A DNA stretch of 64,000 nucleotides, from contig JBMNHQ010000002.1 of NCBI GenBank assembly GCA_050950465.1, forward strand, positions 33,670 to 97,669. The letters are read 5' to 3'. The position numbers and the translations under genes were made by a program. This document shows, in pieces, positions 16,499 to 50,573 of the stretch. Within the stretch, counting starts at the first letter, position 1; each line of letters begins with the position of its first letter. Below the pieces are notes generated by a model. It was given only the letters and a program-made list of their open reading frames with translations. It had not been told where the DNA came from and searched no databases. This DNA comes from Candidatus Nanosyncoccaceae bacterium (lineage in GTDB: Bacteria; Patescibacteriota; Saccharimonadia; Saccharimonadales; Saccharimonadaceae).

Positions 16499-19400
16499 TT
16501 GAAATTAGTTACTCGCAAACTAACTAAGTTTCAACCTAAACTTAAATCAAGTTTTAGGTTAGGGTTTAAGTTTGGCTTCAAGATTCACACTAAACACAAA
16601 ACCTCACAAATATTACGTAGTGGTATTATATTAACTTCTCTTATACTTATTACTTTCTTAACACCCATGTTAAAGAAAACGTTTCAACCTCAAACAGTCA
16701 GTGCTGAAACTGTCACTAAGACTTGGCAGTTAAATCAAAACTCTGGCTATAACTACGACTACAACAACTACGAAATCGAACAAACTGCTACTGGGGCTCA
16801 GCTTAAACAACTACCAAGTTCGATTACTTTAACTGCGGATGAGGATAATTTGCTTGAGAGTTGGGGTCTAAGCGCTGGAACTGGGGTTGTCTCAATTATC
16901 GACGACCCATCTAGTGGCGGCACAGGTAAGGTTTATAGCGCCACTGGTCGTAATACTTTATACTCCAAATTTTATATACCGATTAACCCTGACCTCACTT
17001 ATACCCTAAATGGTAGATTCAAATCAGTTGGGGTGGGTGGGGAATCTAGGATATATTTTGGGCTTTATCCTAGCACTAAGCTCTATAATCAGTATAGTGC
17101 ACATAGTCGTCGCGAATATTTGGCTTTTGGTGATACTGCTACCATTTCTAATTACGACGATTTAACTATTACAGTTCAGCCTAGCGCTGACTTGTCGACT
17201 TGGAACCAGGGTGGGGTTGATGTCAGTCATAGACGCCTCGTAGGCTTTTATTTTGACGGTCAGACCAATAAGCTACCAGATTTTATCATACGCCCTCAGG
17301 GAATGGTTCTGAGTGATGTTGACCCAGCTCAAGGAGCTTATTCGACTGCTAGTGGCACGACTATCAATCTTAACGTACCGATTCCACCAGAAGTGCAGAC
17401 TAAAATAATTGCAGGAACAACTAAAATTAAGAACCATGCGGATGGTGCAGCTTATCTTTATGCGGCAGCCTATAACTCATTAGTTCCCACGTCGTCGTAT
17501 GCCAACTTTTCTGGTGCTGTAACTGGCACAAATACTAATTTAATTATTGCACACAATCTGTTTCCTTACGAGACCAATTGGGCGAAAATAGGCCTTATAT
17601 TAAATTATAATCAGGACGAAAACTTCACTACTAACTTCGACGACATCTCTCTCACCATCACTGGCTCTCAACCAATGTATTCATGGCAGTCACCAGCTAT
17701 TGGGCCACCATATAGTCAGTATGTCAGTGGCCAACTAATATCCATGAGTCATACCCTTGGTTCTGGCTCATCAGACAGTGTTAAATACCAAATCTCATTA
17801 GATGATGGCAAAAGTTGGTTGTATTACAACACAACCACTAACGCCTGGGAAAGTGACCTGTCTCAGCACATAGCTAACACAGAGAACCTTTATAGTACTC
17901 CTCTTATTCGTGACCATGGTGCTAACAAAGCCAATACTATCGACGAAATCAACGCTAACCTAAACAAATTACCAGCTACCGATGGTATCAAATTCAAATG
18001 GCGAGCCTTCCTAGAATCCAACGGCACACAGCAAGTTGAACTCCAATCAGTTACCCTTACGGCTAATAACCTTGATCCAACTATCACATCCGTCACACCT
18101 AGCATTGGTCAAACCACTGGTGGTGATACTATCACTATACGTGGCAGTGGCTTCTCTAACGATGAGTTTGAGTACTTTGTTGGTACTTGTGGTATGACTA
18201 AAAGCGGCAAGCTTTACTGCTGGGGTGATAATAGCCGTGGTAAGTTAGGTGATGGTACTTTCGTTTCTCGATCTGACAAACGTCCAATCGCTCAAGGTGA
18301 AGTTCCTATTACCACAATTTTTACACAAATCGTTAATAGCTGGTATCACATGTGTGCCCTTGGCGACGATAACGAAATCTACTGCTGGGGTGACAATCAA
18401 TATGGCCAACTAGGGGATAACACTTATGACAATCGTAATATTCCAACCAAAGTCAACAAAGGTGCTATCCCAGCTGGTGCTAAAATTGCCAGTATCTCGA
18501 CCGGCTTTCATCACACTTGTGTCTTAACTCAAGATGACAAAATGTATTGCTGGGGTCTAAATGATACTGGCCAACTGGGTGATGGCACTACCGACAATAG
18601 TCCTCTGCCAGTTGAGGTTAATCGCGGAGCCATTCCTACATCGGTGAGAATTAGAAGTCTACAAACAGGCTGGATGTCTAGTTGTGTCCTAGCGGGCGAT
18701 AATAATGTCTACTGCTGGGGAGACAATCGATACGGCCAGCTTGGTGATGGTACTACTGGCAGTAAGGCATCTCCAGTGCTTTTGTCTCAGGGCCAGCGCG
18801 ATCCGAGCTTTAATATTTCTCAATTATCTACAGGGGCCCACCATGCCTGTATAAAAGACAGTGATAATAAGAGCTACTGCTGGGGATTAAATACCTATGG
18901 TCAACTTGGCGATGGTACTTTGTTCAACAAAACTAGCCCAACAGCTGTTACTCAGGGGGATATGCCCAATCAAGACATTAAGCAAGTTGTGGCTGGTTAT
19001 CGGAATACTTATGTTATTGGCTCCGACGATAAGCTCTATGTCTGGGGACACAATGAACGTGGTTCGGTAGGTGACGGGACTTTTACAAACAGAAGCGCCC
19101 CAACTCTGACTCTATTGCCATATAGCTTGGGCACGGTTGTCAGTATGGATCAGTTTGCCTTTCGTAGTGTCGCTGTTTTGTCTAACAATCAAGTATACGC
19201 TTGGGGAGTAGCCAGTGGCTTTCTTGGCGACATTGTGTCGGGAGATCAACCTCTTCCTGTCCGCGCCAGTCGTTCATCTAACCAAGTCAAATTCGACAAC
19301 ACCTACGCACCCTACGTTGAGCGCATCTCACCATATAAACTACGAGTCAGAAACCCAGCACACGATGAGGGTATAGTAAGTGTCACCGCTACCAACTCCA

Positions 19401-22400
19401 CTGGCGAGACTACCACCAAAGCCGATTCTTACACCTACGAAAACCCCACCACACCAGAGATAACTAGCATCTCACCCAGCGAAGGTCTGATTTACGGTGG
19501 CGAAGAAGTCACTATCACTGGCATTAATTTAGATAATATGAAGTGGAAACAGGTGGCAGCTGGAGGCTCTCATGCTTGTGCTATTGGACTAGATAATAAT
19601 GTTTATTGCTGGGGACTAAACAGCTTTGGTCAACTTGGCAATGGTAACAACAACAACTCTAATATTCCCGTTGCTATTTCCCAAGGTGATATACCTACTA
19701 GTGTGACGATTCAGCAACTCTCGGCTGACAGCTATCATACCTGCGCTCTTGGTTCAGACAATAAAGCTTATTGCTGGGGGCGGAACAATTATGGCCAACT
19801 CGGTGATGGCAATAGTGGTTCTAGCGCTGATAAATCTACTCCAGTCGCCGTTCTTCAGGGCGCCATCCCAACTGGCGTCACCATTCAGCAAATCTCGGTT
19901 GGTGGCTCTCACACCTGCGTCCTTGGTTCAGACAATAAAGCTTATTGCTGGGGAAATAATTACCATGGCCAGCTTGGTAATAACAAGAGTGGTGGTAGTC
20001 AATTCTCGTACGATAATAATATTGATTCTTCAACTCCAGTTGCTGTTATCCAAGATAATGTCCCTACCGATATAGTTTTCCAACAAATTACAGTCGGTGG
20101 CGGTCATACCTGCGCTCTTGGTTCAGATAATAAAGCTTATTGCTGGGGGAGTAATAGTAATGGTCAGCTTGGTGATGGCACTACTAATAACAAAACCACT
20201 CCAGTCGCCGTTCTTCAGGGCGCCATCCCAACTGGCGTCACTATCCAGCAACTCTCGGCTGGCACCTCTCATACCTGCGCTCTTGGTTCAGACAATAAAG
20301 CTTATTGCTGGGGGCGGAACAATTATGGCCAACTCGGTGATGGCAATAGTGGTTCTAGCGCTGATAAATCTACTCCAGTCGCCGTTCTTCAGGGCGCCAT
20401 CCCAACTGGCGTCACCATTCAGCAAATCTTGGTTGGCACCTCTCACACCTGCGCTCTTGGTTCAGACAATAAAGCTTATTGCTGGGGATTTAATTGGGGT
20501 GGTCAGCTTGGTGATGGCACTACTAATAACAAAACCACTCCAGTCGCCGTTCTTCAGGGCGCCATCCCAACTGGCGTCACCATTCAGCAAATCTTGGTTG
20601 GCACCTCTCACACCTGCGCTCTTGGTTCAGACAATAAAGCTTATTGCTGGGGGAATAATAATAACGGTCAGCTTGGTGATAGCACTATAACCAACCGTAT
20701 TACTCCAGTACCTGTTAAAACCGCCAATTATTCGGTTGCTTTCGGTGATATTTCAACTCAACAAATTGTCTCATTAGTTAATACTCAAGTGAAAGTTGTT
20801 GCGCCAGCTCATCAATTTGGTGTCAAAGATATTAGTTTGACTCATACTATAATGAATCATACGAGTAGCACATTATCCAGTGCGTATAACTATATTAATC
20901 CGTCAGCACCTGTAATTGCGTCAGTTAATCCTAAAACTGGAGTGTCTGCTGGTAACATTAATGCGACAGTTCAAGTTGAAAATTCGTCGAACCTTAAAAT
21001 AGCTGATGATCTTGTGCAAATAACCACTGGCACCTCTCATACCTGCGCTCTTGGTTCAGACAATAAAGCTTATTGCTGGGGGCGGAACAATTATGGCCAA
21101 CTCGGTGATGGCAATAGTGGTTCTAGCGCTGATAAATCTACTCCAGTCGCCGTTCTTCAGGGCGCCATCCCAACTGGCGTCACCATTCAGCAAATCTCGG
21201 TTGGTGGCTCTCACACCTGCGTCCTTGGTTCAGACAATAAAGCTTATTGCTGGGGATTTAATTGGGGTGGTCAGCTTGGTGATGGCACTACTAATAACAA
21301 AACCACTCCAGTCGCCGTTCTTCAGGGCGCCATCCCAACTGGCGTCACCATTCAGCAAATCTCGGTTGGTGGCTCTCACACCTGCGCTCTTGGTTCAGAC
21401 AATAAAGCTTATTGCTGGGGATATAACAATCATGGTCAACTTGGTGATGGCGCTGGTAGTGCTGGTGATTATAAAACCACTCCAGTCGCCGTTCTTCAGG
21501 GCGCCATCCCAACTGGCGTCACTATCCAGCAACTCTCGGCTGGCACCTCTCATACCTGCGCTCTTGGTTCAGACAATAAAGTATATTGCTGGGGATACAA
21601 CTTTCTTGGTCAACTTGGTGATGGCACCAAGACTAATCGCACCACTCCTGTCGCCGTTTCCCAAGGTGATATACCTACTAGTGTAACGATTCAGCAACTC
21701 TCAGTTGGCAGCAACCATGCTTGTGTTCTTGACTCAAATAACCAGGTTTACTGTTGGGGACATGGTGGCTACGGTCAGCTCGGTGATGGCACTACGATCG
21801 ATAGCACTAGTCCAACTGCCGTTCTTTCTGGTGATATACCTACTAGCGTAACGATTCAGCAAGTTTTTGCTCTCGGAGCAGAAATATACAATGCTTATAC
21901 CTGCGCTCTTGGTTCAGACAATCGTGTCTATTGTTGGGGTTGGAATAGCTACGGTCAACTCGGTGATGGTACTGCTACTCAACGTAATGTCCCTACGGTC
22001 ATCCTTCCGGGTGTTATTCCTATGGATGTTATTTTTCAACAAATTGTTGGTGGCGGTTTTCACACCTGTGCCCTCGACTCAACTGGTAAAGCCTATTGTT
22101 GGGGACACAACGAATATGGTCAACTCGGCACCAACCAAGTAGGCGACCCAGACGATCTCACAGACATCTCAGCCAGTCGTTACACCCCCGCCTATGTCAT
22201 GATGAAGTCCGATCCACTGGAAGTAAGCTTTGGTACCACTGCTGAACACACCGCCGGCACAGCCGGACTAGCTACAGCCGTCTCATCATTCACCGTACCC
22301 GATGGCCAATACTACATCCCAGGCACCACTACACTAACTCTTAACACTCCAGCCCACTCTGTTGGTCCCGTAGCCGTAGTAGTTAAGAACGCTGATGGTC

Positions 22401-22540
22401 AATCTAGCTCTAACACCATCGCCGCTGATGACTCTAATAAGTACACCTACACCAGTGTCCCCGATGCCCCAACTAACCTAACCGCCAATGCTACACCAGT
22501 CACTAACCAAGGCATCAACTACAACATCAATCTAAGCTGA
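16499..22540 (+). CDS. Giant surface protein, copy 1: membrane anchor + beta-rich N domain + three IPT/TIG domains each split by a 7-bladed RCC1 propeller; reading frame stopped by TGA inside the FN3 domain
   Basis: TTG start after GGGGAAGGG. Basic N-terminus plus a hydrophobic helix (IILTSLILITFLTPML). There are 21 RCC1 signatures (YCWGxNxxGQLGDG) arranged 7+7+7, and IPT strands (ITSVTPSIGQTTGGDTITIRGSGF ... VKFDNTYAPYVERISPYKLRVRNPAH..YTY). TGA at 22538-22540. Confidence 0.9.
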   Translation: MKLVTRKLTKFQPKLKSSFRLGFKFGFKIHTKHKTSQILRSGIILTSLILITFLTPMLKKTFQPQTVSAETVTKTWQLNQNSGYNYDYNNYEIEQTATGAQLKQLPSSITLTADEDNLLESWGLSAGTGVVSIIDDPSSGGTGKVYSATGRNTLYSKFYIPINPDLTYTLNGRFKSVGVGGESRIYFGLYPSTKLYNQYSAHSRREYLAFGDTATISNYDDLTITVQPSADLSTWNQGGVDVSHRRLVGFYFDGQTNKLPDFIIRPQGMVLSDVDPAQGAYSTASGTTINLNVPIPPEVQTKIIAGTTKIKNHADGAAYLYAAAYNSLVPTSSYANFSGAVTGTNTNLIIAHNLFPYETNWAKIGLILNYNQDENFTTNFDDISLTITGSQPMYSWQSPAIGPPYSQYVSGQLISMSHTLGSGSSDSVKYQISLDDGKSWLYYNTTTNAWESDLSQHIANTENLYSTPLIRDHGANKANTIDEINANLNKLPATDGIKFKWRAFLESNGTQQVELQSVTLTANNLDPTITSVTPSIGQTTGGDTITIRGSGFSNDEFEYFVGTCGMTKSGKLYCWGDNSRGKLGDGTFVSRSDKRPIAQGEVPITTIFTQIVNSWYHMCALGDDNEIYCWGDNQYGQLGDNTYDNRNIPTKVNKGAIPAGAKIASISTGFHHTCVLTQDDKMYCWGLNDTGQLGDGTTDNSPLPVEVNRGAIPTSVRIRSLQTGWMSSCVLAGDNNVYCWGDNRYGQLGDGTTGSKASPVLLSQGQRDPSFNISQLSTGAHHACIKDSDNKSYCWGLNTYGQLGDGTLFNKTSPTAVTQGDMPNQDIKQVVAGYRNTYVIGSDDKLYVWGHNERGSVGDGTFTNRSAPTLTLLPYSLGTVVSMDQFAFRSVAVLSNNQVYAWGVASGFLGDIVSGDQPLPVRASRSSNQVKFDNTYAPYVERISPYKLRVRNPAHDEGIVSVTATNSTGETTTKADSYTYENPTTPEITSISPSEGLIYGGEEVTITGINLDNMKWKQVAAGGSHACAIGLDNNVYCWGLNSFGQLGNGNNNNSNIPVAISQGDIPTSVTIQQLSADSYHTCALGSDNKAYCWGRNNYGQLGDGNSGSSADKSTPVAVLQGAIPTGVTIQQISVGGSHTCVLGSDNKAYCWGNNYHGQLGNNKSGGSQFSYDNNIDSSTPVAVIQDNVPTDIVFQQITVGGGHTCALGSDNKAYCWGSNSNGQLGDGTTNNKTTPVAVLQGAIPTGVTIQQLSAGTSHTCALGSDNKAYCWGRNNYGQLGDGNSGSSADKSTPVAVLQGAIPTGVTIQQILVGTSHTCALGSDNKAYCWGFNWGGQLGDGTTNNKTTPVAVLQGAIPTGVTIQQILVGTSHTCALGSDNKAYCWGNNNNGQLGDSTITNRITPVPVKTANYSVAFGDISTQQIVSLVNTQVKVVAPAHQFGVKDISLTHTIMNHTSSTLSSAYNYINPSAPVIASVNPKTGVSAGNINATVQVENSSNLKIADDLVQITTGTSHTCALGSDNKAYCWGRNNYGQLGDGNSGSSADKSTPVAVLQGAIPTGVTIQQISVGGSHTCVLGSDNKAYCWGFNWGGQLGDGTTNNKTTPVAVLQGAIPTGVTIQQISVGGSHTCALGSDNKAYCWGYNNHGQLGDGAGSAGDYKTTPVAVLQGAIPTGVTIQQLSAGTSHTCALGSDNKVYCWGYNFLGQLGDGTKTNRTTPVAVSQGDIPTSVTIQQLSVGSNHACVLDSNNQVYCWGHGGYGQLGDGTTIDSTSPTAVLSGDIPTSVTIQQVFALGAEIYNAYTCALGSDNRVYCWGWNSYGQLGDGTATQRNVPTVILPGVIPMDVIFQQIVGGGFHTCALDSTGKAYCWGHNEYGQLGTNQVGDPDDLTDISASRYTPAYVMMKSDPLEVSFGTTAEHTAGTAGLATAVSSFTVPDGQYYIPGTTTLTLNTPAHSVGPVAVVVKNADGQSSSNTIAADDSNKYTYTSVPDAPTNLTANATPVTNQGINYNINLS
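18175..19265 (+). repeat. RCC1 propeller 1 of copy 1 (7 blades, approximate bounds)
   Basis: Seven (Y/V/A)(C/V/A)WG..N..G.LGDG motifs: KLYCWGDNSRG, EIYCWGDNQYG, KMYCWGLNDTG, NVYCWGDNRYG, KSYCWGLNTYG, KLYVWGHNERG, QVYAWGVASG. Confidence 0.85.
19541..20720 (+). repeat. RCC1 propeller 2 of copy 1 (7 blades, approximate bounds)
   Basis: Seven CWG blades. Several are nearly identical at the DNA level to each other and to blades of propeller 3. Confidence 0.85.
21011..22140 (+). repeat. RCC1 propeller 3 of copy 1 (7 blades, approximate bounds)
   Basis: Seven CWG blades, from KAYCWGRNNYG through KAYCWGHNEYG. Confidence 0.85.
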
Positions 22541-23379: not shown

Positions 23380-23607
23380 ATGTCAGAAAAATTTACAAAG
23401 GTTGGTTTCAAATCAGGAGAAACCGATTACACCACCCTTGAAGAAGCAGATAAGTCAAAGCGGAACGAGATATCAAAACAGACGCCTGAAGAATTTGCAG
23501 AAGATCAAGAGCGAATTAGAGAGTTCAAAGAATTTTCCGAAATGATTGTGGGAGCAACTGCTTTAGCACTTGAATATAATCATGCAAGGGAAGTAGAAGC
23601 AGCTTAA
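23380..23607 (+). CDS. Small acidic hypothetical protein
   Basis: 75-aa ORF with an AAGGA SD 8 nt upstream. Candidate promoter TTGACT(23313-23318)-17-TACATT(23336-23341). No recognisable motif. Confidence 0.5.
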   Translation: MSEKFTKVGFKSGETDYTTLEEADKSKRNEISKQTPEEFAEDQERIREFKEFSEMIVGATALALEYNHAREVEAA

Positions 23608-23638
23608 GGTTAGCGAAGTAGAAGGGGAAAACAAAAAT

Positions 23639-26155
23639 ATGTCAATAATTAAACAAAAGATTCTCGGTTTCATCGGTCGGCACCGTCTGCTAGTGTTTTC
23701 GCTATTTATTGCAATCTTATTGCCGATAGCGACTAGTGCGGCTGGTGACGTGAAAATCCGCATGATCAGTGATGGTCAAAAATACTTAAGAAATGCTGCT
23801 ACTGGCAAATATATGACGGCCAATCGTATGCTTGGGCCAAATGGTGAGGTTTATTTCTGCGCCAATAAGGGGTTGCGCGGACCGGACTATTTATCGCGCG
23901 GCTCTTATGGCACATACACCTCGCCTCAAAAAATGGGTGATTTACCCAAAAAGGTCCTTTTGTTAGGTTATCCAAATCGTCAGATAGCTGGCTTTAACGA
24001 GAGCGAGCAGTACCATATTACGCAAAATGCCTTCTGGGCAAGCTCAACTAATTATGTAGTAAACGCTAAAAACACAGTCGGGAATTTGCGTGCAACATCA
24101 TATGTTAACGGCAAGGCTCGAAATGAACAGATTTTGCAGGCAGTTAAGGATCTTTATAATCACGCTGTCAGCACCAATATTGCTGAGTTTAATCCAAGCC
24201 TAACCTTGAATTCGGCGCCTCAGGCTACATTAAAGGGCGATATCTTTGTAGCAGGCCCCTTTTCAGTTACTGGCAAAAACGTCAGGTCGGCTAATCTCGC
24301 ACTGAGTGCAACCGGTGTTAACAACGCTAGATTTTACAATGAGCAAAATCAAACTATTACCCATATTGGTCTTGGACAGAAATTTTACATAAGTTTTCCT
24401 AAGCTAGGTAATAGTCTAAAGGGTACGGCAAACATTAATCTAAGCGGTAAGCAATCTTACTTAGAGGGATTGATTTATAAGCCACCGCAAAGCAATATGC
24501 AAGACATGGCGACATTGGAGGTTGTTGAGACGGCCGCCAATTTAAATACAGCTGCTAAATGGGAATTGACTCCATCTGGTCGTGTCGAAATACTTAAAAT
24601 TGATGCTATTTCTTCAAAACCCCTCTCTGGTGCGACGTTTGAGATTTATAACTCTTCTGGACAAAAAGTTTATTCAGCCGTAACTGATAATAGTGGAAAA
24701 ATTACCTCTTCAAATTTAAACGCTGGTAAATACACTTTCAAAGAAACAGTAGCGCCATCGGGCTATTATCTAAATGATAGAGTTGGCACAGTTGAAATTA
24801 AAACTAATGGCGAGTTGGTGCGCGCCAGTTTGAGTAATCAACCAATTCCAGACACACCTATTCAGATTAAAAAAGTGGATGCTAACACTAAGACAGTCTT
24901 GCGTGGTGCAAAGATTGAAGTACTCAATTCTAATAATGTCAAAGTATTTTCAGGTCTAACCGACAATAATGGCATAGCTGAAGTTGGCCAGCTCAAGGCT
25001 GGTAAATATACTTACAAAGAAGTTGAGCCACCTGCTGGCTATTATCATAATACCAACACTTATGACTTTACTATTAACCCAGGCGATAGCCTAAAGGTAC
25101 TAACCATAGAGAATACCGCTGTAAAGAAAATAACCGTCTGTGATTTAACTAGTCGATCTATGGTGACAATTGAAGAGACTAAGTTCGATTCTGCAAAATA
25201 TTCTAAAAATCAAGACGACTGTACAAGCATTGAAGTCTGTGACCTGACAACCCGTAAGTCTACTACCATCATCAAAACAGCCTTTGATAAAACCAAACAC
25301 TCTAACAACTGGGATGATTGTACAAGCATCGAGGTCTGCGATTTAACAACCCGCAAACCAGCTACCATCATCAAAACAGCCTTTGATAAAACCAAACACT
25401 CTAACAACTGGGATGATTGTGAGTCGATTAAGGTCTGTGATCTAAAAACTCGCAAATCGGTTACCATCATCAAAACAGCCTTTGACAAAACTAAGCACTC
25501 TAATAACCTAGACGACTGTACAAGCATTGAAGTCTGTGACCTGACAACCCGTAAGTCTACTACCATCATCAAAACAGCCTTTGATAAAACCAAACACTCT
25601 AACAACTGGGATGATTGTACAAGCATCGAGGTCTGCGATTTAACAACCCGCAAACCAGCTACCATCATCAAAACAGCCTTTGATAAAACCAAACACTCTA
25701 ACAACTGGGATGATTGTACGGAAACTAAGGTATGTGAGTTGGATAGTAAAAAAGTAATTACGATTGTAGAATCAGCTTTCGATCCAGCTAAACATTCACG
25801 CAACTTAGAAGACTGTAATCTTAAGATTGAAGTTTGTGAGTTGGAAACCAAGAATATCATCATCATCGACGAAACAAAGTTTGATTCCGTCAAACATTCA
25901 AAGAATCTAGAAGATTGTATTCCGAAAATCGAAGTTTGTGACCTAAACACTAAACAGATAGTTACTATCAAAGAGGCAGACTTTGATGAAACCAAATATT
26001 CCAAGGATCATGAAGACTGTCTCTCGACTCCAGCTGAACTGCCAAAAACTGGTCCACTGGAAACCGTGGCTGCATTGATTGCCATCACCGCTGTTAGCTT
26101 GTCGATTACCTACTGGTATAAATCAGCTCAAGCAGTTAAACAGATTAAGCGCTAA
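23639..26155 (+). CDS. LPXTG-anchored adhesin: signal peptide, thioester (TED/TQXA) domain, two SpaA/Cna-B prealbumin-like domains, nine 33-aa Cys-bounded repeats
   Basis: Signal LLVFSLFIAILLPIATSAAG. VYFCANKG (Cys74, nt 23858-60) with LLGYPN and HITQNAFW (Gln129, nt 24023-25) match thioester-domain motifs. Two copies of the G.kYt.kEt.aP.GY pattern. LPKTG at 26039-26053, then a helix and a basic tail. Confidence 0.85.
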   Translation: MSIIKQKILGFIGRHRLLVFSLFIAILLPIATSAAGDVKIRMISDGQKYLRNAATGKYMTANRMLGPNGEVYFCANKGLRGPDYLSRGSYGTYTSPQKMGDLPKKVLLLGYPNRQIAGFNESEQYHITQNAFWASSTNYVVNAKNTVGNLRATSYVNGKARNEQILQAVKDLYNHAVSTNIAEFNPSLTLNSAPQATLKGDIFVAGPFSVTGKNVRSANLALSATGVNNARFYNEQNQTITHIGLGQKFYISFPKLGNSLKGTANINLSGKQSYLEGLIYKPPQSNMQDMATLEVVETAANLNTAAKWELTPSGRVEILKIDAISSKPLSGATFEIYNSSGQKVYSAVTDNSGKITSSNLNAGKYTFKETVAPSGYYLNDRVGTVEIKTNGELVRASLSNQPIPDTPIQIKKVDANTKTVLRGAKIEVLNSNNVKVFSGLTDNNGIAEVGQLKAGKYTYKEVEPPAGYYHNTNTYDFTINPGDSLKVLTIENTAVKKITVCDLTSRSMVTIEETKFDSAKYSKNQDDCTSIEVCDLTTRKSTTIIKTAFDKTKHSNNWDDCTSIEVCDLTTRKPATIIKTAFDKTKHSNNWDDCESIKVCDLKTRKSVTIIKTAFDKTKHSNNLDDCTSIEVCDLTTRKSTTIIKTAFDKTKHSNNWDDCTSIEVCDLTTRKPATIIKTAFDKTKHSNNWDDCTETKVCELDSKKVITIVESAFDPAKHSRNLEDCNLKIEVCELETKNIIIIDETKFDSVKHSKNLEDCIPKIEVCDLNTKQIVTIKEADFDETKYSKDHEDCLSTPAELPKTGPLETVAALIAITAVSLSITYWYKSAQAVKQIKR
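25124..26020 (+). repeat. Nine tandem 99-bp (33-aa) coding repeats, consensus IEVCDLtTrK..TIiKtaFDktKHSnN.dDCts
   Basis: Read directly from the translation. Repeats 2-3 and 5-6 are DNA-identical, reflecting a ~297-bp higher-order duplication (about 25210-25410 = 25507-25707). Confidence 0.9.
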
Positions 26156-26172
26156 GAATATTTCATAAAATA

Positions 26173-26203
26173 AAAAGCACTCTGAACTCAGAGTGCTTTT
26201 TTG
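26173..26203 (+). terminator. Rho-independent terminator of the adhesin gene
   Basis: AGCACTCTGA (26176-26185), loop AC, TCAGAGTGCT (26188-26197), then a TTTTTT run. Confidence 0.8.
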
Positions 26204-29161: not shown

Positions 29162-29788
29162 TTAGAAAGATCGTAACTTTGTAATTGGCCACCAGCGTAA
29201 AACGACTGGCCCGACGATGTTATAGATTGGCACAGTGCCAAGGCCGTTACGTGAATCGAATGAGTTGTTGCCGTCGCGGTGATCACCTACCACAAAAATC
29301 GTTTTAGCAGGCACGACAGTATCTAAATCGCCAGCTACAGGCGAACGAGGCTGGTCTTTAATGCCTTGATCAGGACTGAATCCATCAGGGTTGTCGTTGT
29401 TATAAACGGTGATGGTGCCATTCTCAATCACAACCCGCTCGCCGGCAAAGGCGATAACGCGTTTGACTAGATATTTGTTTTTTTCATTTGGCCCAGAGTT
29501 ACTCCCAGAATTCTGAAAAACAATTACTTGACCACGCTTGGGCATATAATCAGTGTTTTTAATTTGTGACCAAGTGTGGGGTAAGCGATTAACAATAATT
29601 CGCTCACCGTTGTCGAGAGTGTCTTCCATACTTATACCAACTACACTGTAACTTCTAAAGACAAAGGCATTAACTAACAGGGTTCCGACTACTACGGCAG
29701 CGACAAAAACCATTAAGTTGCTAATGTCGCGCAGTTTATTCGAGCGATTTATATTGATTGTGCTCATACTTATTCCATTATATACCAA
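29162..29788 (-). CDS. lepB: Signal peptidase I
   Basis: N-terminal TM helix, GISMEDTL (Ser box), KRVIAFAGE (Lys box), GDHRDGNNSFDSR (box E). Confidence 0.88.
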   Translation of the reverse strand: MVYNGISMSTININRSNKLRDISNLMVFVAAVVVGTLLVNAFVFRSYSVVGISMEDTLDNGERIIVNRLPHTWSQIKNTDYMPKRGQVIVFQNSGSNSGPNEKNKYLVKRVIAFAGERVVIENGTITVYNNDNPDGFSPDQGIKDQPRSPVAGDLDTVVPAKTIFVVGDHRDGNNSFDSRNGLGTVPIYNIVGPVVLRWWPITKLRSF

Positions 29789-29811
29789 TTACGTTTTAAT
29801 TTTTATTTTTT

Positions 29812-31503
29812 ATGGTTTTCCGTTATACTTATAGATTGTTAATGAAAGTAAAACGTCCAACATCAGTCGATGGTTTTATTCCAGTAAAACGCCAAAATAA
29901 AGCGCCTAAGATTAAGGGCGGTGTTTCTATTCAAACTAACAAATCTATAGTTAACAAGAAGGTTCCGTCTGAATCGATTCAATTGGAGTCAGTTAAAACT
30001 CGAAAAACAGTGGCTAGCGAAAAGATTAAAGACCTGCCACCGATTGACATCGACGATAGTAATAAGAAGCCTTCTAGGCACTTACGTAAGAAGCGTCAAG
30101 CTGGATTTGGTAAGACTAAGAAGAAGCGTAGCGGGTTAGTGCGATTTATAATTTCATTAACTGTTTTAGTAGTAGGCGCCTGTGCGGTTTATGCTGGCAT
30201 GTACACTTATAAGATTGCCCAAGTTTCTAGCAAAGTGTTTACTGGCAGCTGGGCTGGCTTGTTTGTGCATAAGCCACTGAAGACTGACAGCAATGGTAGA
30301 ACCAATGTGTTGGTTTTTGGTACGGCTGAAGACAGTGAGGATGGCAAGCATGGTGGGGCTAACTTGACCGATTCTGTTATGGTGATTAGTTTCAGTAAAG
30401 ATGACGATGATATGGCAATGCTGAATTTGCCACGCGACCTCTGGATAAAGCATGAAAAAATCTGTACTGTTGGCTATCAGGAGAAGCTCAATTCAGTCTA
30501 TTTTTGTGCTTCTGATGATGGCAAAAATGAATTGGCTGGTGCTGAAGCATTGATGCGCAAAGTTACAGAAATAACTGGAGTTGAATTACAATATTATGTT
30601 CATTTGAATTTCAGTGCAGTTATTGGCTTAGTTGATGCGGTCGGTGGGGTTGATGTCGATGTGATGGGTTACGGGCCGGTACCAAGAGGAGTTAAGCCGG
30701 GGAGTATCTTAGATCGTAATTTTGACTGGAAATGTGGTGGTAAGTGTTATTACGTTAAGTATGAACCTGGTGTGCATCATATGGATGGTGAGCATGCTTT
30801 AGCGTTCATTCGTGCTCGTAATGCCAATGGTGGTTATGGCTTGCCCAATTCCAATTTTGATCGTGAAAAAAATCAACAGAAGGTGGTTAATGCTCTGATG
30901 GCGAAGATGATGACAGCCGGTACCCTGAGTGACTACAACAAATTCTCCAAGATTCTCGATACAGTTGGTGATAATTTACGCACCAATTTCTCTTCAGACG
31001 AGGTTCAGTCAGCTATTAGGCTTGCTAAAAAAGCTAAATTTAGCAGTGGGCGCTCCATAACATTGGTTGGTACTGGTGTAAATTTACTAACGACTGGTAA
31101 TATGTACGGTAAATCTTCGGTTTATCCAAAAGCCGGTTTATTTGATTATGAAGCAATTAAGAAACATGTTACCAAGGAGCTGTTGGATGCTGGTTTGTCA
31201 GAAGAGGCTGCTAGAATAGGTGTTTTTAACGCCAGTGGCGAATCGGGTGTGGCTAAGAATTTGGCTGACAAGCTAAAGGAAAATAATATCAATGTGGTTC
31301 AGGTAGGCAACGCTCCTAAAACCTGCTCACCCGAAACACCTACTGCAATTGTTCAGTTAGGCGAAGACTCTAAACCTAAAACTTTAGCTAGATTACGCAG
31401 AGTGGCAAGTGGTCGTAAGATTGATTGTCAACTCGAGTTTGATTATGACAGAACATTAGATTTTATAGTCATCATTAATAGTCTGGAGCCGACGAATGAT
31501 TAG
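29812..31503 (+). CDS. LytR-CpsA-Psr (LCP) family cell-wall glycopolymer transferase with C-terminal LytR_C domain
   Basis: TM helix, LCP core (NVLVFGT..D.....NLTDSVMVISF, NLPRDLW, FIRARN) and a C-terminal IGVFNASGESGVAKNLADKL domain. An alternative start exists at 29842. Confidence 0.85.
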   Translation: MVFRYTYRLLMKVKRPTSVDGFIPVKRQNKAPKIKGGVSIQTNKSIVNKKVPSESIQLESVKTRKTVASEKIKDLPPIDIDDSNKKPSRHLRKKRQAGFGKTKKKRSGLVRFIISLTVLVVGACAVYAGMYTYKIAQVSSKVFTGSWAGLFVHKPLKTDSNGRTNVLVFGTAEDSEDGKHGGANLTDSVMVISFSKDDDDMAMLNLPRDLWIKHEKICTVGYQEKLNSVYFCASDDGKNELAGAEALMRKVTEITGVELQYYVHLNFSAVIGLVDAVGGVDVDVMGYGPVPRGVKPGSILDRNFDWKCGGKCYYVKYEPGVHHMDGEHALAFIRARNANGGYGLPNSNFDREKNQQKVVNALMAKMMTAGTLSDYNKFSKILDTVGDNLRTNFSSDEVQSAIRLAKKAKFSSGRSITLVGTGVNLLTTGNMYGKSSVYPKAGLFDYEAIKKHVTKELLDAGLSEEAARIGVFNASGESGVAKNLADKLKENNINVVQVGNAPKTCSPETPTAIVQLGEDSKPKTLARLRRVASGRKIDCQLEFDYDRTLDFIVIINSLEPTND

Positions 31504-32326
31504 GGCTTTTTTAACTTATTCATCCTCAAAGAATCGTCGTCGTGATTTGGCTAGTAAGATTGTTTATATTGCATTGAATATTGCTTTGGTGGCGAGTATA
31601 GCTATATCTTTGATTGTTTTCTCATCAATTTGGTTAGCAATATCCTTGCTAGTCTTAAGTAAGTGGCGAGTTTTTGCTGTTAAGCCACGTTTCTGGTGGG
31701 CTAATATGCAATCAAATGCAGTTGACTTTATTGTGGGTCTAGGATACATCGTTTATTTATCGCAAATTCCTCTGGGAAGTTATATTAGTCAAGGGATTGT
31801 TACGGTTTTATATATTTTCTGGTTATTGATTGTAAAGCCACGCTCTAGTCGAGTTTGGGTGGTGGTGCAGGGTCTGGCGGCTATGTATATGGGAGTGAGT
31901 TCACTACTGATAATTGGTTCAGATTGGCCCCAATTCTTAGTATTAGGTCCATCAATATTGGTCTGTTTTATAGCACAGCGTCATATATTGGCGGCTCACG
32001 ACATAGAGAATGTTAATTATTATGCTGCTTTGGGTGCCATGATTAGTGGGGAAGTGATGTGGGTGTTGGGCCACTGGGTCGTGTCCTATAATCTACCGCT
32101 AAAAGGACTTTATTTAGTTCAGCCTGCGATAATCTTAGTTTTATTGATGATTGTCGTCGAATTAGTGATAGAATCTATCTTGAATGAACCAGAAAAAAGT
32201 GGTGCAAAAACTAAGAGTGGCTGGCTGGATGACTTACGTCCAGTTCTTTTGCCGATTGGTTTATGTCTAATTACAGTTTTAATCTTGATGATATTCTTCA
32301 CTAAGCCGCTGGTAGGTAACATTTAA
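31496..32326 (+). CDS. Polytopic integral membrane protein (unassigned)
   Basis: About seven hydrophobic helices in the translation. The start overlaps the LCP stop, which suggests translational coupling. Confidence 0.6.
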   Translation: MIRAFLTYSSSKNRRRDLASKIVYIALNIALVASIAISLIVFSSIWLAISLLVLSKWRVFAVKPRFWWANMQSNAVDFIVGLGYIVYLSQIPLGSYISQGIVTVLYIFWLLIVKPRSSRVWVVVQGLAAMYMGVSSLLIIGSDWPQFLVLGPSILVCFIAQRHILAAHDIENVNYYAALGAMISGEVMWVLGHWVVSYNLPLKGLYLVQPAIILVLLMIVVELVIESILNEPEKSGAKTKSGWLDDLRPVLLPIGLCLITVLILMIFFTKPLVGNI

Positions 32327-32346
32327 CTCTATAAGAAAGGGGTCGT

Positions 32347-33510
32347 ATGGATCCGGAAGTAGGAAAAAAATCAAACAACAAAGCTACTATAGTTGCTTTG
32401 GTAATTTTTGGGTTGGTAGCAATACTTAGTATAGTGGTTTATTTTAGCGGTTGGCTAGATAATAAATCTGATCAATTAGTGACCGATCGGTCAAAAATAA
32501 ACATCTCGGGGTCTGGCGATAAAAACTCCTATCAGTTTGCCGAGCAGAAAATATCTATTAGTGATGTGGTCGATAAGGTGTCACCGAGCGTGGTTTCGAT
32601 TTTGACAACCACAAATTCAATGACATTTTGGGGTGAAAGCTCTGTTCAGCAAGGGGCGGGCAGTGGAATAATTTTGTCAAAAGATGGTTATATACTAACC
32701 AATAAGCATGTAGTGAGTGGAGCAAAAGCGGTAGTGGTGGCTTTAGCTAATGGTGAAACTTATGATGACGTTGAGATACTGTTTCTAGACCCAATGAATG
32801 ATTTGGCCTTCTTAAAAATCAATAATGTCAACAACTTAACTCCGATTGAAATTGGCGATTCAAAAACCATCAAGGTTGGGCAACCAGTCTTGGCGATTGG
32901 TAATGCACTAGGTGAATATCAAAATACCGTAACTGATGGAATTATTTCAGGGGTTGGAAGGAATATTGTCGCTCAGGGCGGTAATGGCTATGGTGCAGTT
33001 AAATCTGAAGGTTTGAGCGACCTAATTCAGACTAATGCGGCGATTAATTCAGGTAACTCTGGTGGTCCACTGGTAAATGCTGGTGGACAATTAATCGGTA
33101 TTAATACGGCAGTTGCGCAAAATGCACATGGTATTGGCTTTGCGATTCCAGTTGGTGCTGCTAAAGGCGTAATCAAGCAATTAGGACGAGACGATTCAAA
33201 TATTAGACGGGGTTATATTGGTGTTAGTTATATGGAGATTACTCCTACAGTAGCAAAACAACGTAATTTAGCGCGATCACGTGGTGCAATTATTAGTCAA
33301 AATGGCGTTATGTCAGGCTCACCAGCCAAAGCAGCTGGCCTGCGCGAAGGTGATATCATTACCAAAGTTAATGATAGTGATATCGGAGTGGTTGGTAGTG
33401 TAGCAACGTTGGTGGCCGAATATAGCCCTGGTGAAATAGTTGAGCTGATAATCTTACGAGATGGCTCTGAGCAGGCTATTAAAGTTGAGGTTGGTCAGTA
33501 TACTGACTAA
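32347..33510 (+). CDS. htrA: HtrA/DegP-family serine protease with one PDZ domain
   Basis: N-terminal TM helix. Catalytic triad contexts TNKHV, NDLAFLK, GNSGGPLVN. C-terminal PDZ (GLREGDIITKVND). Confidence 0.9.
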   Translation: MDPEVGKKSNNKATIVALVIFGLVAILSIVVYFSGWLDNKSDQLVTDRSKINISGSGDKNSYQFAEQKISISDVVDKVSPSVVSILTTTNSMTFWGESSVQQGAGSGIILSKDGYILTNKHVVSGAKAVVVALANGETYDDVEILFLDPMNDLAFLKINNVNNLTPIEIGDSKTIKVGQPVLAIGNALGEYQNTVTDGIISGVGRNIVAQGGNGYGAVKSEGLSDLIQTNAAINSGNSGGPLVNAGGQLIGINTAVAQNAHGIGFAIPVGAAKGVIKQLGRDDSNIRRGYIGVSYMEITPTVAKQRNLARSRGAIISQNGVMSGSPAKAAGLREGDIITKVNDSDIGVVGSVATLVAEYSPGEIVELIILRDGSEQAIKVEVGQYTD

Positions 33511-34382
33511 TGAGCTTGTGCTGCGGTGATGTAGTTGGTGCGTTTGATGTTTTTGAAGTCGTTTCGTTGTAATTTCTCAGTAATTAATTTTTGTTGACGC
33601 GGGTCTGATTCAAGGATTAGCCAACCGTTGGGATGGAGATTTCGCTGATCTTTAATTTGATCAATCAGCTGGCTGATTAGAGTTAGTCCATTATCGTCAG
33701 CAAAGAGGGCCGATTTTGGTTCAAATTCAACTTCTGCACCTATCTCCCACGCGGTCGATACATAGGGCAGGTTTGCAGTGATAATGTCATATTTTTCAGT
33801 AATATTTTCCAACAAATTGTTTCGAATAACTTTTGTGTTCATGGCCCCTAGTTTAATTTGATTTTGTCGACAAATCTCTAGTGCCTTTGGGTCTATATCC
33901 GATAAGGTGGTCCTATAAGGTATTTCAAGTTGATTAAGCTCTAATGATAAACTCAAGCCAATTACGCCCGAGCCGCAACCAACATCAGCGATTTTAATTG
34001 GTCGAGCATCAATTGTTTTGGAAATGTTTATAGCTTGCTCGACTAATTCTTCAGTCTCTGGGCGGGGTATTAATACATCTGGCGAGACGATAAAATCATA
34101 GCCAAAAAATTCCTTTTGTCCAGTAATGTATGCCACTGGATAGCTAACAGCTCTTTTTTGCAATAGTCGATTAGCTATTTTTTGTTCGTCTATAGTTAGA
34201 GTTGCTTCTGGATGAGTGTGTAAGTTAATACGTTCTACGTTTAAGACATGGGCTAAAATTAGCTCAGAGTCTAGCTGTGGCGTAACAATACCATTAGACT
34301 TTAAGTACTGGCTAGCTTGCTCGAGCCATTTGCCACGATTAGTGGCTGTCTTCGTCATCATTAGCGATAAGTTCTTGCTCAT
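33507..34382 (-). CDS. prmC: Release factor glutamine N5-methyltransferase PrmC/HemK
   Basis: SAM motif [11 protein letters not shown] and catalytic NLPY (NPPY type). Downstream of, and overlapping, prfA. Confidence 0.85.
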
Positions 34383-47430: not shown

Positions 47431-50400
47431 TTGAAATTAGTTACTCGCAAACTAACTAAGTTTCAACCTAAGCTAAATAAAGCAACACAGTTTAGGTTAG
47501 GGTTTAAGTTTGGGTTTAAGTCTAAGGCTAACTCAGTTCAAAGCTCTAGCCCTAACTCTAATCTAAGCCTAAAGACTAATTATGGTTTTAAGATAAAAAC
47601 CAAACACCAAACCAACCAAACCCTAAGACTAGGACTAACACTAGCTTCACTCATACTCATAACCTTCCTATCACCTATACTAAAGAAGACCTTCACTCCA
47701 CACACAACTAACGCTACTACCATAACTAAAACATGGCAGTTAAACCAGAATATTCCCACTCAATACGATTACAACACACATGAAATTGAACAAACCGCTA
47801 CTGGCGCTAGACTAAAACAACTACCAAGCTCCATCACACTTACGGCTGATGAAGAGAGTTTCTTTGATGTGTGGGAGCCATATTATGGCGGTGGGCAAAC
47901 TTCAATAGTTGACGACCCTTCCAGTGGTGGTAATGGTAAAGTGTATAATGTTGCTAATCATGTTCAGCTTTTCTCTAATTTCTTTGTACCAATTAATCCA
48001 GATTTTACTTATACTATAAGTGGAAGATTTAAGTCAGTTGGTGCAGGTGGTGAATCTATGGTGTATTTTGGTCTTGCACCATATGATAAAAATTATTATC
48101 AACCAAACTTTATACAGCGGAGTGATTACCGTGCTGTTGGCGATACGGCCACTATTGCTAATTATGATGATTCAACTATCACAGTTCAAGCTGGCGTAGA
48201 TTTATCGACTTGGAATCAAGGTGGAGTGGATTTAGCTGTTGATCGTTTAATTGGCTTCTATTTTGATGGTCAGACTGACAAATTACCAGATTTTGTCATA
48301 TCGCCTCAAGAGTCTGGTTATTATTATAGTACAGATCCGACTAGAGGGGCTTATTCCACTGCTAGTGGTACAACCATTAATCTTAATACACCGATTCCGC
48401 CTGAAGTGCAGGCTAAAATAAACTTAGATGTAACGAAGATTAAGAATCATATGGGCGACTCTACATATCTTTATACAGCAGCTAAGTCAAAACTTATTCC
48501 CGCTAATATATACACTACCTATTCGGGTAGTATAACTGGCATAAATACTAGCTTGGGTCAAAATATACATAACTCATTCCCATACGAAACCAATTGGGCA
48601 AAAATAGTTATCTTACTCAACTATGGTCAAGATCATAATTATGCTACCAACTTCGACGACATCTCTCTCACTATCACTGGTTCTCAACCAATGTATTCAT
48701 GGCAGTCACCAGCTATTGAGCCACCATATAGCCAATACGTTAGTGGTCAACTAACATCTATGAGTCACACGCTTGGCTCTGGCTCATCAGACAGTGTTAA
48801 ATACCAAATCTCATTAGATAATGGCAAAAGCTGGCTTTATTACAACACGACCACTAACGCTTGGGAAAGTGACTTATCTCAGCGAGTATCAAATAGTAGT
48901 ATTTATCGCATTACTACCATCCGTGACCACGGCGCCCTCAAAGCCAATACTATCGAAGAAATCAACGCCAACTTAAACAAGTTACCAGCCACCGATGGCA
49001 TCCAATTCAAATGGCGCGCCTTCTTAGAGTCCAACGGCACTCAGCAGGTTGAACTCCAATCAGTCACTCTCACAGCCAATAACCTTGATCCAACTATCAC
49101 ATCCGTCACACCTAGCATTGGTCAAACCACTGGTGGTGATACTATCACTATACGTGGCAGTGGCTTCTCTAACGATGAGTTTGAGTACTTTGTTGGTACT
49201 TGTGGTATGACTAAAAGCGGCAAGCTTTACTGCTGGGGTGATAATACTTGTGGCCAACTAGGTGATGGCACTTTTACTAGCCGTTTAGATAAACGACCAA
49301 TCGCTCAAGGTGAAGTCCCAACCACTACAACCTTCACTCAGATTGTTAAAGGCTGGCTACACATGTGTGCTCTTGGCGACGATAACGAAATCTACTGCTG
49401 GGGTGACAATCAATATGGCCAATTGGGCGATGGTGCTTTCGACAACCGCAACATTCCAACTAAAGTCAACAAAGGCGCCATACCAGCCAGTGCTAAAATA
49501 ACCTCTATTTCTACAGCTTATTACCACACCTGTGCTCTAACCCAAGACGATAAGATGTATTGTTGGGGGCAAAATGACCTCGGTCAACTCGGTGACGGTA
49601 CCACTGACAATCGCTCACTACCAGTTGAAGTTAACCGTGGTAATATCCCAACATCAGTTAGAATCAGAAGTCTGCAGACTGGCTGGAAGCATAGCTGTGT
49701 CCTCGCTGGCGATAATAACGTCTATTGTTGGGGTCGAAACACTCTTGGTCAGCTCGGTGATGGTACTACTACTCATAGATCATCTCCAGTCCTTGTAATT
49801 CAAGGTCAGCGTGACCCTAGCTATAATATTACTCAATTATCCGTCGGTGCTCACTATGCCTGTATCAAGGATACTGATAGTAAAGCCTATTGTTGGGGTC
49901 GAAATGTTGATGGTGAATTAGGTAGCGGAATTACATCAAACTACGAAACTAGCCCAGTCGCTATTGCCCAAGGAGTTATGCCTGATCAAAATATTAAAAC
50001 CATCATGGCAGGCTATTGGAGCACTTATGCGATTAGCTCTGATGACAAACTTTATGCTTGGGGGCATAACGGAGACGGTTCCTTAGGTGATGGCACCACT
50101 ATAAATCGCAATACACCAATATTAGTCTCGTTACCGTACAGTTCTGGTGTAAATATCTCTCATACTAATTTCTGGTGGCGCTCTGCTCGAGTTACTGTGT
50201 CTAATGGACATCATTATATTTGGGGATTAAACAATCATGGCCAATTAGGTGATGGCACACAAACTAGCTACCACACACCAACCCACATCCGCTACTCCAC
50301 TAACCAAGTCAAGTTTGGTGACAACTACGCACCACAAGTTGAGCGTATTTCACCATATGAACTGCGTGTCCGAAACCCAGCGCATGAAGCTGGAGTAGTA

Positions 50401-50553
50401 GGAGTAACAGCCACCAACTCAACTGGCGAGACTACCACCAAAGCCGATTCTTACACCTACGAAAACCCCACCACACCAGAAATAACTAGCATCTCACCTA
50501 ACGAAGGTCTGATCTACGGTGGCGAGAAGTCACTATATCTGGCACTAATTTAG
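47431..50553 (+). CDS. Giant surface protein, copy 2, 5' part (anchor, N domain, IPT1 with nested 7-blade RCC1 propeller, start of IPT2), ended by frameshift
   Basis: TTG start in a context identical to copy 1 and collinear with copy 1 throughout. After ...ITSISPNEGLIYGGE the frame runs out (KSLYLALI, TAG 50551-53) because of a 1-nt deletion relative to copy 1. Confidence 0.9.
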   Translation: MKLVTRKLTKFQPKLNKATQFRLGFKFGFKSKANSVQSSSPNSNLSLKTNYGFKIKTKHQTNQTLRLGLTLASLILITFLSPILKKTFTPHTTNATTITKTWQLNQNIPTQYDYNTHEIEQTATGARLKQLPSSITLTADEESFFDVWEPYYGGGQTSIVDDPSSGGNGKVYNVANHVQLFSNFFVPINPDFTYTISGRFKSVGAGGESMVYFGLAPYDKNYYQPNFIQRSDYRAVGDTATIANYDDSTITVQAGVDLSTWNQGGVDLAVDRLIGFYFDGQTDKLPDFVISPQESGYYYSTDPTRGAYSTASGTTINLNTPIPPEVQAKINLDVTKIKNHMGDSTYLYTAAKSKLIPANIYTTYSGSITGINTSLGQNIHNSFPYETNWAKIVILLNYGQDHNYATNFDDISLTITGSQPMYSWQSPAIEPPYSQYVSGQLTSMSHTLGSGSSDSVKYQISLDNGKSWLYYNTTTNAWESDLSQRVSNSSIYRITTIRDHGALKANTIEEINANLNKLPATDGIQFKWRAFLESNGTQQVELQSVTLTANNLDPTITSVTPSIGQTTGGDTITIRGSGFSNDEFEYFVGTCGMTKSGKLYCWGDNTCGQLGDGTFTSRLDKRPIAQGEVPTTTTFTQIVKGWLHMCALGDDNEIYCWGDNQYGQLGDGAFDNRNIPTKVNKGAIPASAKITSISTAYYHTCALTQDDKMYCWGQNDLGQLGDGTTDNRSLPVEVNRGNIPTSVRIRSLQTGWKHSCVLAGDNNVYCWGRNTLGQLGDGTTTHRSSPVLVIQGQRDPSYNITQLSVGAHYACIKDTDSKAYCWGRNVDGELGSGITSNYETSPVAIAQGVMPDQNIKTIMAGYWSTYAISSDDKLYAWGHNGDGSLGDGTTINRNTPILVSLPYSSGVNISHTNFWWRSARVTVSNGHHYIWGLNNHGQLGDGTQTSYHTPTHIRYSTNQVKFGDNYAPQVERISPYELRVRNPAHEAGVVGVTATNSTGETTTKADSYTYENPTTPEITSISPNEGLIYGGEKSLYLALI
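49189..50300 (+). repeat. RCC1 propeller 1 of copy 2 (7 blades, approximate bounds)
   Basis: Seven CWG/AWG/IWG blade motifs, from KLYCWGDNTCG to HHYIWGLNNHG. Confidence 0.85.
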
Positions 50554-50573
50554 ATAATTTTAAGTTTAAACAA

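Follow-up and report, generated by a model that had tools for sequence, protein, structure and literature searches.

A predicted wall-anchored thioester adhesin in a Saccharibacterium

The 64,000-nucleotide stretch of DNA analysed here (hereafter the window; forward-strand positions 33,670 to 97,669 of contig JBMNHQ010000002.1, assembly GCA_050950465.1) carries a gene for a putative surface adhesin (Table 1). The organism is a Saccharibacterium. The predicted protein is made up, from the N terminus to the C terminus, of a Sec-type signal peptide, a thioester domain (TED), two CnaB/SpaA domains, a stalk of tandem repeats, and a cell-wall sorting signal. In our reading, the gene probably encodes a wall-anchored fibrillar adhesin of the TIE type (thioester, isopeptide, ester domain), with a thioester between Cys74 and Gln288. 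The TED/TIE family itself is known; what is new is the saccharibacterial lineage, the stalk of two-cysteine mini-domains, and the ecological setting.

The adhesin gene is not an assembly artefact, because its exact DNA recurs in two independent metagenome contigs. Indeed, the 2517 nt show 0 mismatches with contigs of two Joint Genome Institute (JGI) metagenomes, 3300049641 and 3300060680, and the encoded protein is identical. A preliminary description of this DNA had proposed an adhesin with a TED head marked by three motifs, two SpaA/Cna-B domains, a repeat stalk, and an LPKTG sorting motif (aa 801-805). All of these were recovered, far beyond what chance would produce. The motifs EVYFCANKG (aa 70-78), LLLGYPN (aa 107-113), and HITQNAFW (aa 126-133, with Gln129 at nt 24023-24025) lie exactly where that description had placed them.

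Table 1. Features of the adhesin gene and its flanks; positions are those of the window.
Feature	Position	Strand	Basis
Whole adhesin gene, 838 aa + stop codon	23639..26155	+	Open reading frame (ORF) list, metagenome identity, ortholog
Probable ribosome-binding site GAAGGGG, 11 nt 5' of ATG	23621..23627	+	Sequence reading; putative function
Sec-type signal peptide, ~aa 1-35: basic n-region, hydrophobic LLVFSLFIAILLPIA, TSAAG	23639..23743	+	Inspection; predicted cleavage site
Predicted Class II thioester domain, ~aa 36-312	23744..24574	+	PF08341, family profile, AlphaFold2 model, Foldseek
Cys74, predicted thioester Cys; F73-C74-A75-N76 fits [YFL]CΦζ	23858..23860	+	24/24 aligned sequences; corresponds to BaTIE Cys71
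G110-Y111-P112 motif, TED head lobe	23966..23974	+	G in 23/23, Y and P in 22/23
TQNAFW, aa 128-133 (TQxxΦW), helical in model	24020..24037	+	T128 and Q129 invariant, W133 in 22/23; corresponds to BaTIE TQLAVW
M-Q-D-M-A, aa 287-291 (ΦQζΦΦ); Gln288 at nt 24500-24502	24497..24511	+	Column Q in 23/24 including BaTIE
CnaB/SpaA domain 1, aa 313-404	24575..24850	+	PF17802
CnaB/SpaA domain 2, aa 405-497	24851..25129	+	Second PF17802 stretch; IKKVD, YKEVEPPAGY, TIENT
Stalk, nine tandem 33-34 aa modules, aa 498-797	25130..26029	+	Tandem Repeats Finder (TRF), repeat dissection
Cell-wall sorting signal: LPKTG (26039-26053), hydrophobic segment, basic tail	26030..26152	+	Sequence
Palindromic GC-rich hairpin between A and T runs	26172..26201	.	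Terminator scan

The thioester head

The head consists of a lobe (~aa 36-185) and of an inserted beta-sandwich followed by a long P/Q hairpin (~aa 186-312). The Pfam profile of the family, PF08341, matches aa 73-176 with 26.4 bits (E=9.7e-6), above the gathering cut-off of 22; the alignment spans positions 3-100 of the 102 in the profile. The precomputed annotation of the identical protein marks the TED only as “faint.” When the protein was compared with the sequences of the PDB using phmmer, the top match was 6fwv (E=6.5e-40), with an alignment that starts at the Cys motif and extends across the first CnaB domain. This entry is BaTIE, the TIE protein of Bacillus anthracis (BasC/BA5258), which is composed of a Class II TED, three CnaB domains, and an LPXTG signal.

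Relatives of the head are rare. A word-indexed homolog search with the head alone returned none, and a profile search of a 5.8-billion-sequence collection, which is limited by its word index, yielded only 7 proteins. Exhaustive scanning with HMMER, over 1.84 billion representatives, yielded just 27, including five close relatives (P0001-P0005) that have an LPKTGP tail in common. A family profile made from 15 of the aligned head regions matched every solved thioester domain in the PDB. The best E-values were obtained with BaTIE (2.8e-55) and EfmTIE86 from Enterococcus faecium (6fwy, 3.1e-34), followed by the TEDs of Cpa (4c0z, 6.9e-8; 2xi9, 2.4e-6) and those of CpTIE, SfbI, and SaTIE (1.1e-4 to 1.3e-2; 6fx6, 1.4e-3).

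The predicted fold points to the same family. An AlphaFold2 model of aa 30-312, computed on the head alignment, has a mean predicted local distance difference test score (pLDDT) of 89.9 and a predicted template modelling score (pTM) of 0.84. Foldseek superposes it over its whole length on 6fwv (E=2e-17, TM-score on the query, TMq, of 0.72) and on 6fwy (E=1.6e-16, TM 0.76/0.77). With the Class I TEDs, such as those of SfbI and Cpa from Streptococcus pyogenes (5A0L, 2XI9, 4C0Z), which do not have the inserted beta-sandwich and the slipknot, only the head lobe superposes (TMq ~0.35). In Class II TEDs, helix α3 and strand P are separated by an inserted beta-sandwich of about 75 residues, and a long P/Q hairpin leads back to the head lobe, giving a slipknot. 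In the model, the C-terminal half is all-beta and its long hairpin is formed by model residues E232-252 and E261-280. The assignment to Class II is made because the match to Class II structures covers the whole length, whereas that to Class I stays at the low value that an inserted beta-sandwich predicts. Thus, by every sequence and fold criterion applied, aa ~36-312 are predicted to be a Class II TED.

The residues linked by the thioester of TEDs are a Cys in a [YFL]CΦζ motif and a Gln in a weak ΦQζΦΦ motif, which lies on strand Q close to where the domain ends. The pairs known from structures are Cys71 and Gln266 in BaTIE, Cys88 and Gln292 in EfmTIE86, and Cys296 and Gln467 in SaTIE. The Gln and Trp of the TQxxΦW motif are carried by helix α2 beside the bond and hydrogen-bond to the Cys backbone; they are inessential for bond formation (PMC6194298). 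The three hallmarks used in the preliminary description therefore omit the motif that bears the bond-forming Gln.

Alignment of 23 head regions with MAFFT, reaching down to ~20% identity, leaves only C74, G110, T128, and Q129 invariant. Near-invariant positions are Y111, P112, W133, A131, P254, and Q288. Cys74 is also the sole cysteine of the 497-aa head and shaft, all others being in the stalk. The position of the bond was examined by alignment with BaTIE, whose sequence was rebuilt from a printed alignment; the chain index equals the ORF number minus 31, as set by Cys71 being chain C40, and with this offset chain Q235 is Gln266. MAFFT G-INS-i then pairs C74 with Cys71, Q129 and W133 with the Gln and Trp of the TQ motif, and Q288 with Gln266. 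The spacing between the thioester Cys and Gln would be 214 residues, vs. 195 in BaTIE, 204 in EfmTIE86, and 171 in SaTIE. In the AlphaFold2 model, a beta-strand ends at Cys74, Gln129 belongs to a helix, and the tip of the long hairpin carries Gln288; this agrees with the published topology.

Cys74 was correctly singled out in the preliminary description as the predicted thioester cysteine, in so far as this residue is invariant and aligned to that of BaTIE. The Cys74-Gln129 bond proposed with it does not hold, Gln129 being the flanking Gln of the TQ motif; the predicted partner of Cys74 is Gln288. A test of the proximity of Cys74 and Gln129 in a structural model would probably be passed for the wrong reason. 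It is uninformative, because the TQ-motif Gln adjoins the Cys in every solved TED.

BaTIE is thus the closest point of comparison. The two proteins have a signal peptide, a Class II TED with inserted beta-sandwich, CnaB/SpaA domains, and a sorting signal in the same order, and their thioester Cys and Gln, TQxxΦW motifs, and isopeptide triads align. However, identity in the head is only ~18-23%, and the window protein has one extra residue in the loop that leads to the bond-forming Gln. This protein has two CnaB domains instead of three, and a 300-aa stalk of nine two-cysteine modules that BaTIE does not have. The phylum (Saccharibacteria/Patescibacteria) and the obligately epibiotic lifestyle are also different. 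EfmTIE86 and SaTIE (Staphylococcus aureus, 6FX6) share the Class II fold at ~16% identity; the SaTIE stalk contains ester domains, and none were detected here. SfbI and Cpa, for which covalent capture of a target amine has been demonstrated, share the fold of the head lobe and the predicted Cys-Gln chemistry.

Shaft, stalk, and wall anchor

The two CnaB/SpaA domains that follow the head are both recognized by PF17802 (E=3.6e-40). The predicted isopeptide triad is Lys320 (24596-24598), Glu369 (24743-24745), and Asn400 (24836-24838) in the first domain, and Lys412 (24872-24874), Glu461 (25019-25021), and Asn492 (25112-25114) in the second. In the first, the three residues align one by one to Lys384, Glu443, and Asp464 of BaTIE, which are bonded in the crystal (PMC6194298); in the second, they sit in the equivalent motifs. 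All six are kept in the ortholog. With a profile match and a Lys/Glu/Asn triad each, both stretches qualify as isopeptide domains, with predicted bonds.

The stalk is made up of repeats for which TRF gives periods of 99 and 297 nt. Each module contains two invariant cysteines, 27 residues apart. It is covered by no Pfam or NCBIfam model, the match to the Pfam family BPTI_nem (E=1.9) being noise. A homolog search found the module in at least 65 other proteins of 222-526 aa (P0048-P0112). Their heads are mutually unrelated (DUF11, PKD, PF21377, or no recognized domain), and in 59 of these 65 proteins the module directly precedes an LPxTG-type signal. Both cysteines are present in 100% of the 169 repeats counted across these proteins, and the module consensus reads I-x-V-C-[DE]-L-x-T-K-x-I-I-T-I-x-E-x-x-F-D-x-x-K-H-S-K-N-L-x-D-C. 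This two-cysteine module of 33 aa is a previously unannotated building block of many LPxTG proteins of the lineage.

The repeat sequences suggest that the two cysteines of one module probably form a disulfide within the repeat. This pairing is the parsimonious one, because it leaves no cysteine over and because the single-copy module of one close relative (P0004) also has both. An AlphaFold2 model of three repeats (pLDDT 94.4) shows a unit composed of a beta-hairpin, a turn, a short strand, and a short helix. Its comparison with the PDB using Foldseek gave nothing significant, the best match being a tandem Kunitz inhibitor (E=0.097). A Kunitz/BPTI-like fold was considered and rejected, since BPTI-like matches have E>5 and the Kunitz match is insignificant. 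The number of copies varies among orthologs, with nine here, five in the ortholog P0001 (locus L001), and four in P0002. Comparable variation in stalk length is discussed for “periscope” proteins (PMC9704523).

At the C terminus, LPKTG is followed by PLETVAALIAITAVSLSITYWY and by KSAQAVKQIKR. The sorting signal is kept in the ortholog and in P0002-P0005. Sortase occurs in more than half of the genomes of the Candidate Phyla Radiation (CPR), in which an MdbA-like oxidoreductase associated with VKOR is enriched (PMC6744442). Because these enzymes are reported in CPR, wall anchoring and extracytoplasmic disulfides are plausible in the lineage.

At 1586-2008, the window encodes a further putative sortase substrate, a small protein of 140 aa. 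At its N terminus is a membrane or signal segment; a Ser/Asp-rich low-complexity region follows, and the protein closes with LPRTG, a hydrophobic stretch, and an RRR tail.

Conservation of the locus and possible role in attachment

A species-level genome set contains a single close genomic relative, an uncultured Candidatus Saccharibacteria metagenome-assembled genome (MAG). Its ortholog is followed by the same downstream genes and is 80% identical across the entire protein, or 76% in the best-matching segment. The loci of P0003 and P0005 (L010 and L008, respectively) are more distant, and there the adhesin occupies the same slot as in the window. The syntenic order is priA, recJ, ftsA, ftsZ, two small ORFs, the adhesin, in some cases a nucleoside triphosphate (NTP) transferase, and then L21, parA, parB, a signal peptidase, and LCP (LytR-CpsA-Psr). 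Identity to the window is 39% in the TED head, 59% in the CnaB region, and 49-90% in the neighbouring genes for L010; the corresponding values for L008 are 30, 38, and 38-85%. Within this vertically inherited locus, the TED head thus diverges faster than any other segment, with its Cys/Gln core kept.

A mechanism can be proposed by homology to BaTIE, EfmTIE86, SaTIE, SfbI, and Cpa. The protein would be exported via Sec, after which the stalk modules would be oxidized, with one disulfide apiece, and the CnaB domains would form their Lys-Asn isopeptide bonds autocatalytically. In the head, the thiol of Cys74 would attack the side-chain amide of Gln288, releasing ammonia and creating a buried thioester against which Gln129 and Trp133 would pack. 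A sortase would then cleave LPKT|G and couple the protein to peptidoglycan, and the stalk, of variable length (nine, five, or four modules), would keep the head off the cell. Finally, a primary amine of the target would attack the thioester, yielding a permanent amide to Gln288 and freeing Cys74.

The likeliest target, which we put at even odds or slightly less, is the surface of the bacterial host of this obligate epibiont, in which case the diverging surface of the head would determine specificity. A precedent for such contacts exists, since a Class II TED adhesin is required for mating contact in Bacillus subtilis carrying pLS20 (PMC8092201). This protein, TIEpLS20 (p34 of the conjugative plasmid), also has an N-terminal Class II TED followed by Cna-type domains, and it attaches bacterium to bacterium, which is the role proposed for the window adhesin. 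It is borne by the plasmid within the conjugation operon and is described as not being attached by a sortase. In contrast, the window gene is found on the chromosome among core genes and encodes an LPKTG signal. More tentatively, the thioester might act as a “harpoon” that locks the epibiont covalently to the cell wall or to a surface protein of its host, the diverging head and the variable stalk being determinants of host range; on balance, we are inclined to doubt this extended version.

Several points weigh against the interpretation as a Cys74-Gln288 thioester adhesin directed at host bacteria. The NCBIfam model TQXA_dom (TIGR03934), a short model of 42 positions that covers the GYP-TQ region only, reaches 13.0 bits at aa 105-136, below its cut-off of 30.4 (E=0.074), so that the protein is not assigned to this model. 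Ungapped local HMMER alignments put Gln288 one column off the bond-forming Gln of BaTIE and EfmTIE86. This offset arises because the loop is longer by one residue in the window protein (8 residues from Y280 to Q288, vs. 7 in BaTIE and EfmTIE86), so that the equivalence of Gln288 hinges on a one-residue indel, settled by MAFFT G-INS-i. We infer thioester formation from homology and conservation. Among the ORFs of the 64-kb window, there is no plausible gene with a TLxTC-type sortase motif. The choice of a bacterial target, although plausible, draws on the epibiotic lifestyle and on the pLS20 precedent, and the published factors of host attachment in Saccharibacteria are type IV pili and glycan-binding proteins, with no TEDs.

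Four other explanations can be weighed on this background. The same covalent adhesin could be directed at something else, an animal or plant protein, a polymer of the environment or of a biofilm matrix, or kin cells in auto-aggregation, and we regard this as possible though somewhat unlikely. SfbI binds fibrinogen, a lysine of a host protein being the characterized TED target, and for most TEDs the target is not known (PMC4450167). Saccharibacteria are also described as interacting with epithelial cells. However, all cultivated Saccharibacteria are described as obligate epibionts of bacteria, the adhesin gene is kept at a core chromosomal position across the clade, and the B. subtilis Class II TED adhesin mediates contact between bacteria. 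A quite different possibility is that the TED fold has been retained while the thioester is unformed or unused, the protein serving as a non-covalent fibrillar adhesin or a surface spacer. The bond being assigned here by homology, the modest Pfam score of the TED, and the sub-threshold TQXA_dom match would fit this scenario. It is nevertheless unlikely, as Cys74 and Gln288 are kept down to ~20% identity while most positions change, and a decayed domain would probably lose them.

The domain composition also evokes pili, since Cpa, a pilus tip protein, has TEDs and SpaA-type domains are typical of pilins. That the window protein is a Cpa-like tip adhesin of a sortase-polymerized pilus, rather than a monomeric wall-anchored protein, seems highly improbable. 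No YPKN-type pilin motif is present, the sole match (FPK at aa 253) lying inside the TED sandwich, and neither the window nor the syntenic loci have pilin or sortase genes nearby. Moreover, BaTIE, the nearest structural relative, is a monomeric sortase-anchored protein (PMC6194298). A sortase-assembled pilin is rejected on the same grounds, the missing YPKN motif and the missing pilin and class C sortase neighbours. Lastly, a thioester between Cys74 and the Gln129 of TQNAFW could be invoked, as Gln129 is invariant and by homology should adjoin Cys74. It deserves almost no credence, because the TQ-motif Gln is dispensable and never the bond partner in solved TEDs (PMC6194298), and because Gln129 aligns to this Gln in BaTIE while Gln288 aligns to Gln266. 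The structural literature on TEDs and the alignment together rule this pair out.

The TIE-type adhesin proposed here would widen the known range of these domains. TEDs have been reported exclusively in Gram-positive bacteria (PMC4450167). Our search of the accessible library found no publication that ties a thioester domain to Saccharibacteria, Patescibacteria, or CPR, and the main genetic study of host interaction in Saccharibacteria leaves thioester, sortase, and LPXTG unmentioned. How Saccharibacteria and other Patescibacteria recognize and hold their hosts is the question to which the window adhesin brings a concrete candidate for irreversible attachment. The finding would not surprise TED specialists; for epibiont biology, it offers an attachment candidate that is sharply testable. 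The informative point mutations are pinpointed (C74A and Q288A), and covalent capture, if true, would expose the host receptor directly as an SDS-stable adduct that can be mapped by mass spectrometry.

Neighbouring genes and other features of the window

The hairpin downstream of the adhesin gene (Table 1) is probably a bidirectional terminator that separates it from the next gene. An Rfam scan of the window gave zero RNA families, and a second TED paralog was not found within the 64 kb.

Upstream lies a giant RCC1-repeat ORF (16499..22540), next to which the preliminary description had placed the adhesin. The adjacency is seen in the window; the linkage is not conserved and is specific to this lineage. 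Indeed, an RCC1/TIG-repeat giant gene stands between ftsZ and the adhesin only in the window lineage, where L008 and L010 have the two small ORFs. The adjacency is thus a lineage-specific insertion, because the P0003 and P0005 loci are devoid of the giant gene. The adhesin-bearing metagenome contigs L001, L006, and L007 end inside or beside it. A functional link between the two genes was considered and rejected, the relatives having the adhesin directly after ftsZ and the small ORFs.

The giant gene ends with an in-frame TGA at 22538-22540, which is TGG (Trp) in the otherwise matching contig L006, and the frame remains open to 23263. A strain-level nonsense mutation, read-through, or an error in sequencing could each account for this TGA. 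Directly 5' of the adhesin, at 23380-23607, an ORF encodes an acidic protein of 75 aa without signal peptide and is preceded by promoter-like sites. It is a called gene in L006 and L007, has no Pfam match, and is represented only by a 25-aa fragment in L001; no homolog is detectable at that position in L008 and L010.

Downstream of parA/parB, region 29162-33510 encodes an S26 signal peptidase, LCP, and a PDZ-containing HtrA-like protease. This envelope-related cluster is syntenic in all related loci, and the divergence of its LCP protein (38-49% identity) is nearly that of the adhesin head. Finally, two further large RCC1-repeat ORFs, which encode 1040 and 1387 aa and contain TIG and fn3 domains, are found at 47431-54737, just upstream of secA, in a region where GC is raised up to 0.51 and the GC skew is negative.

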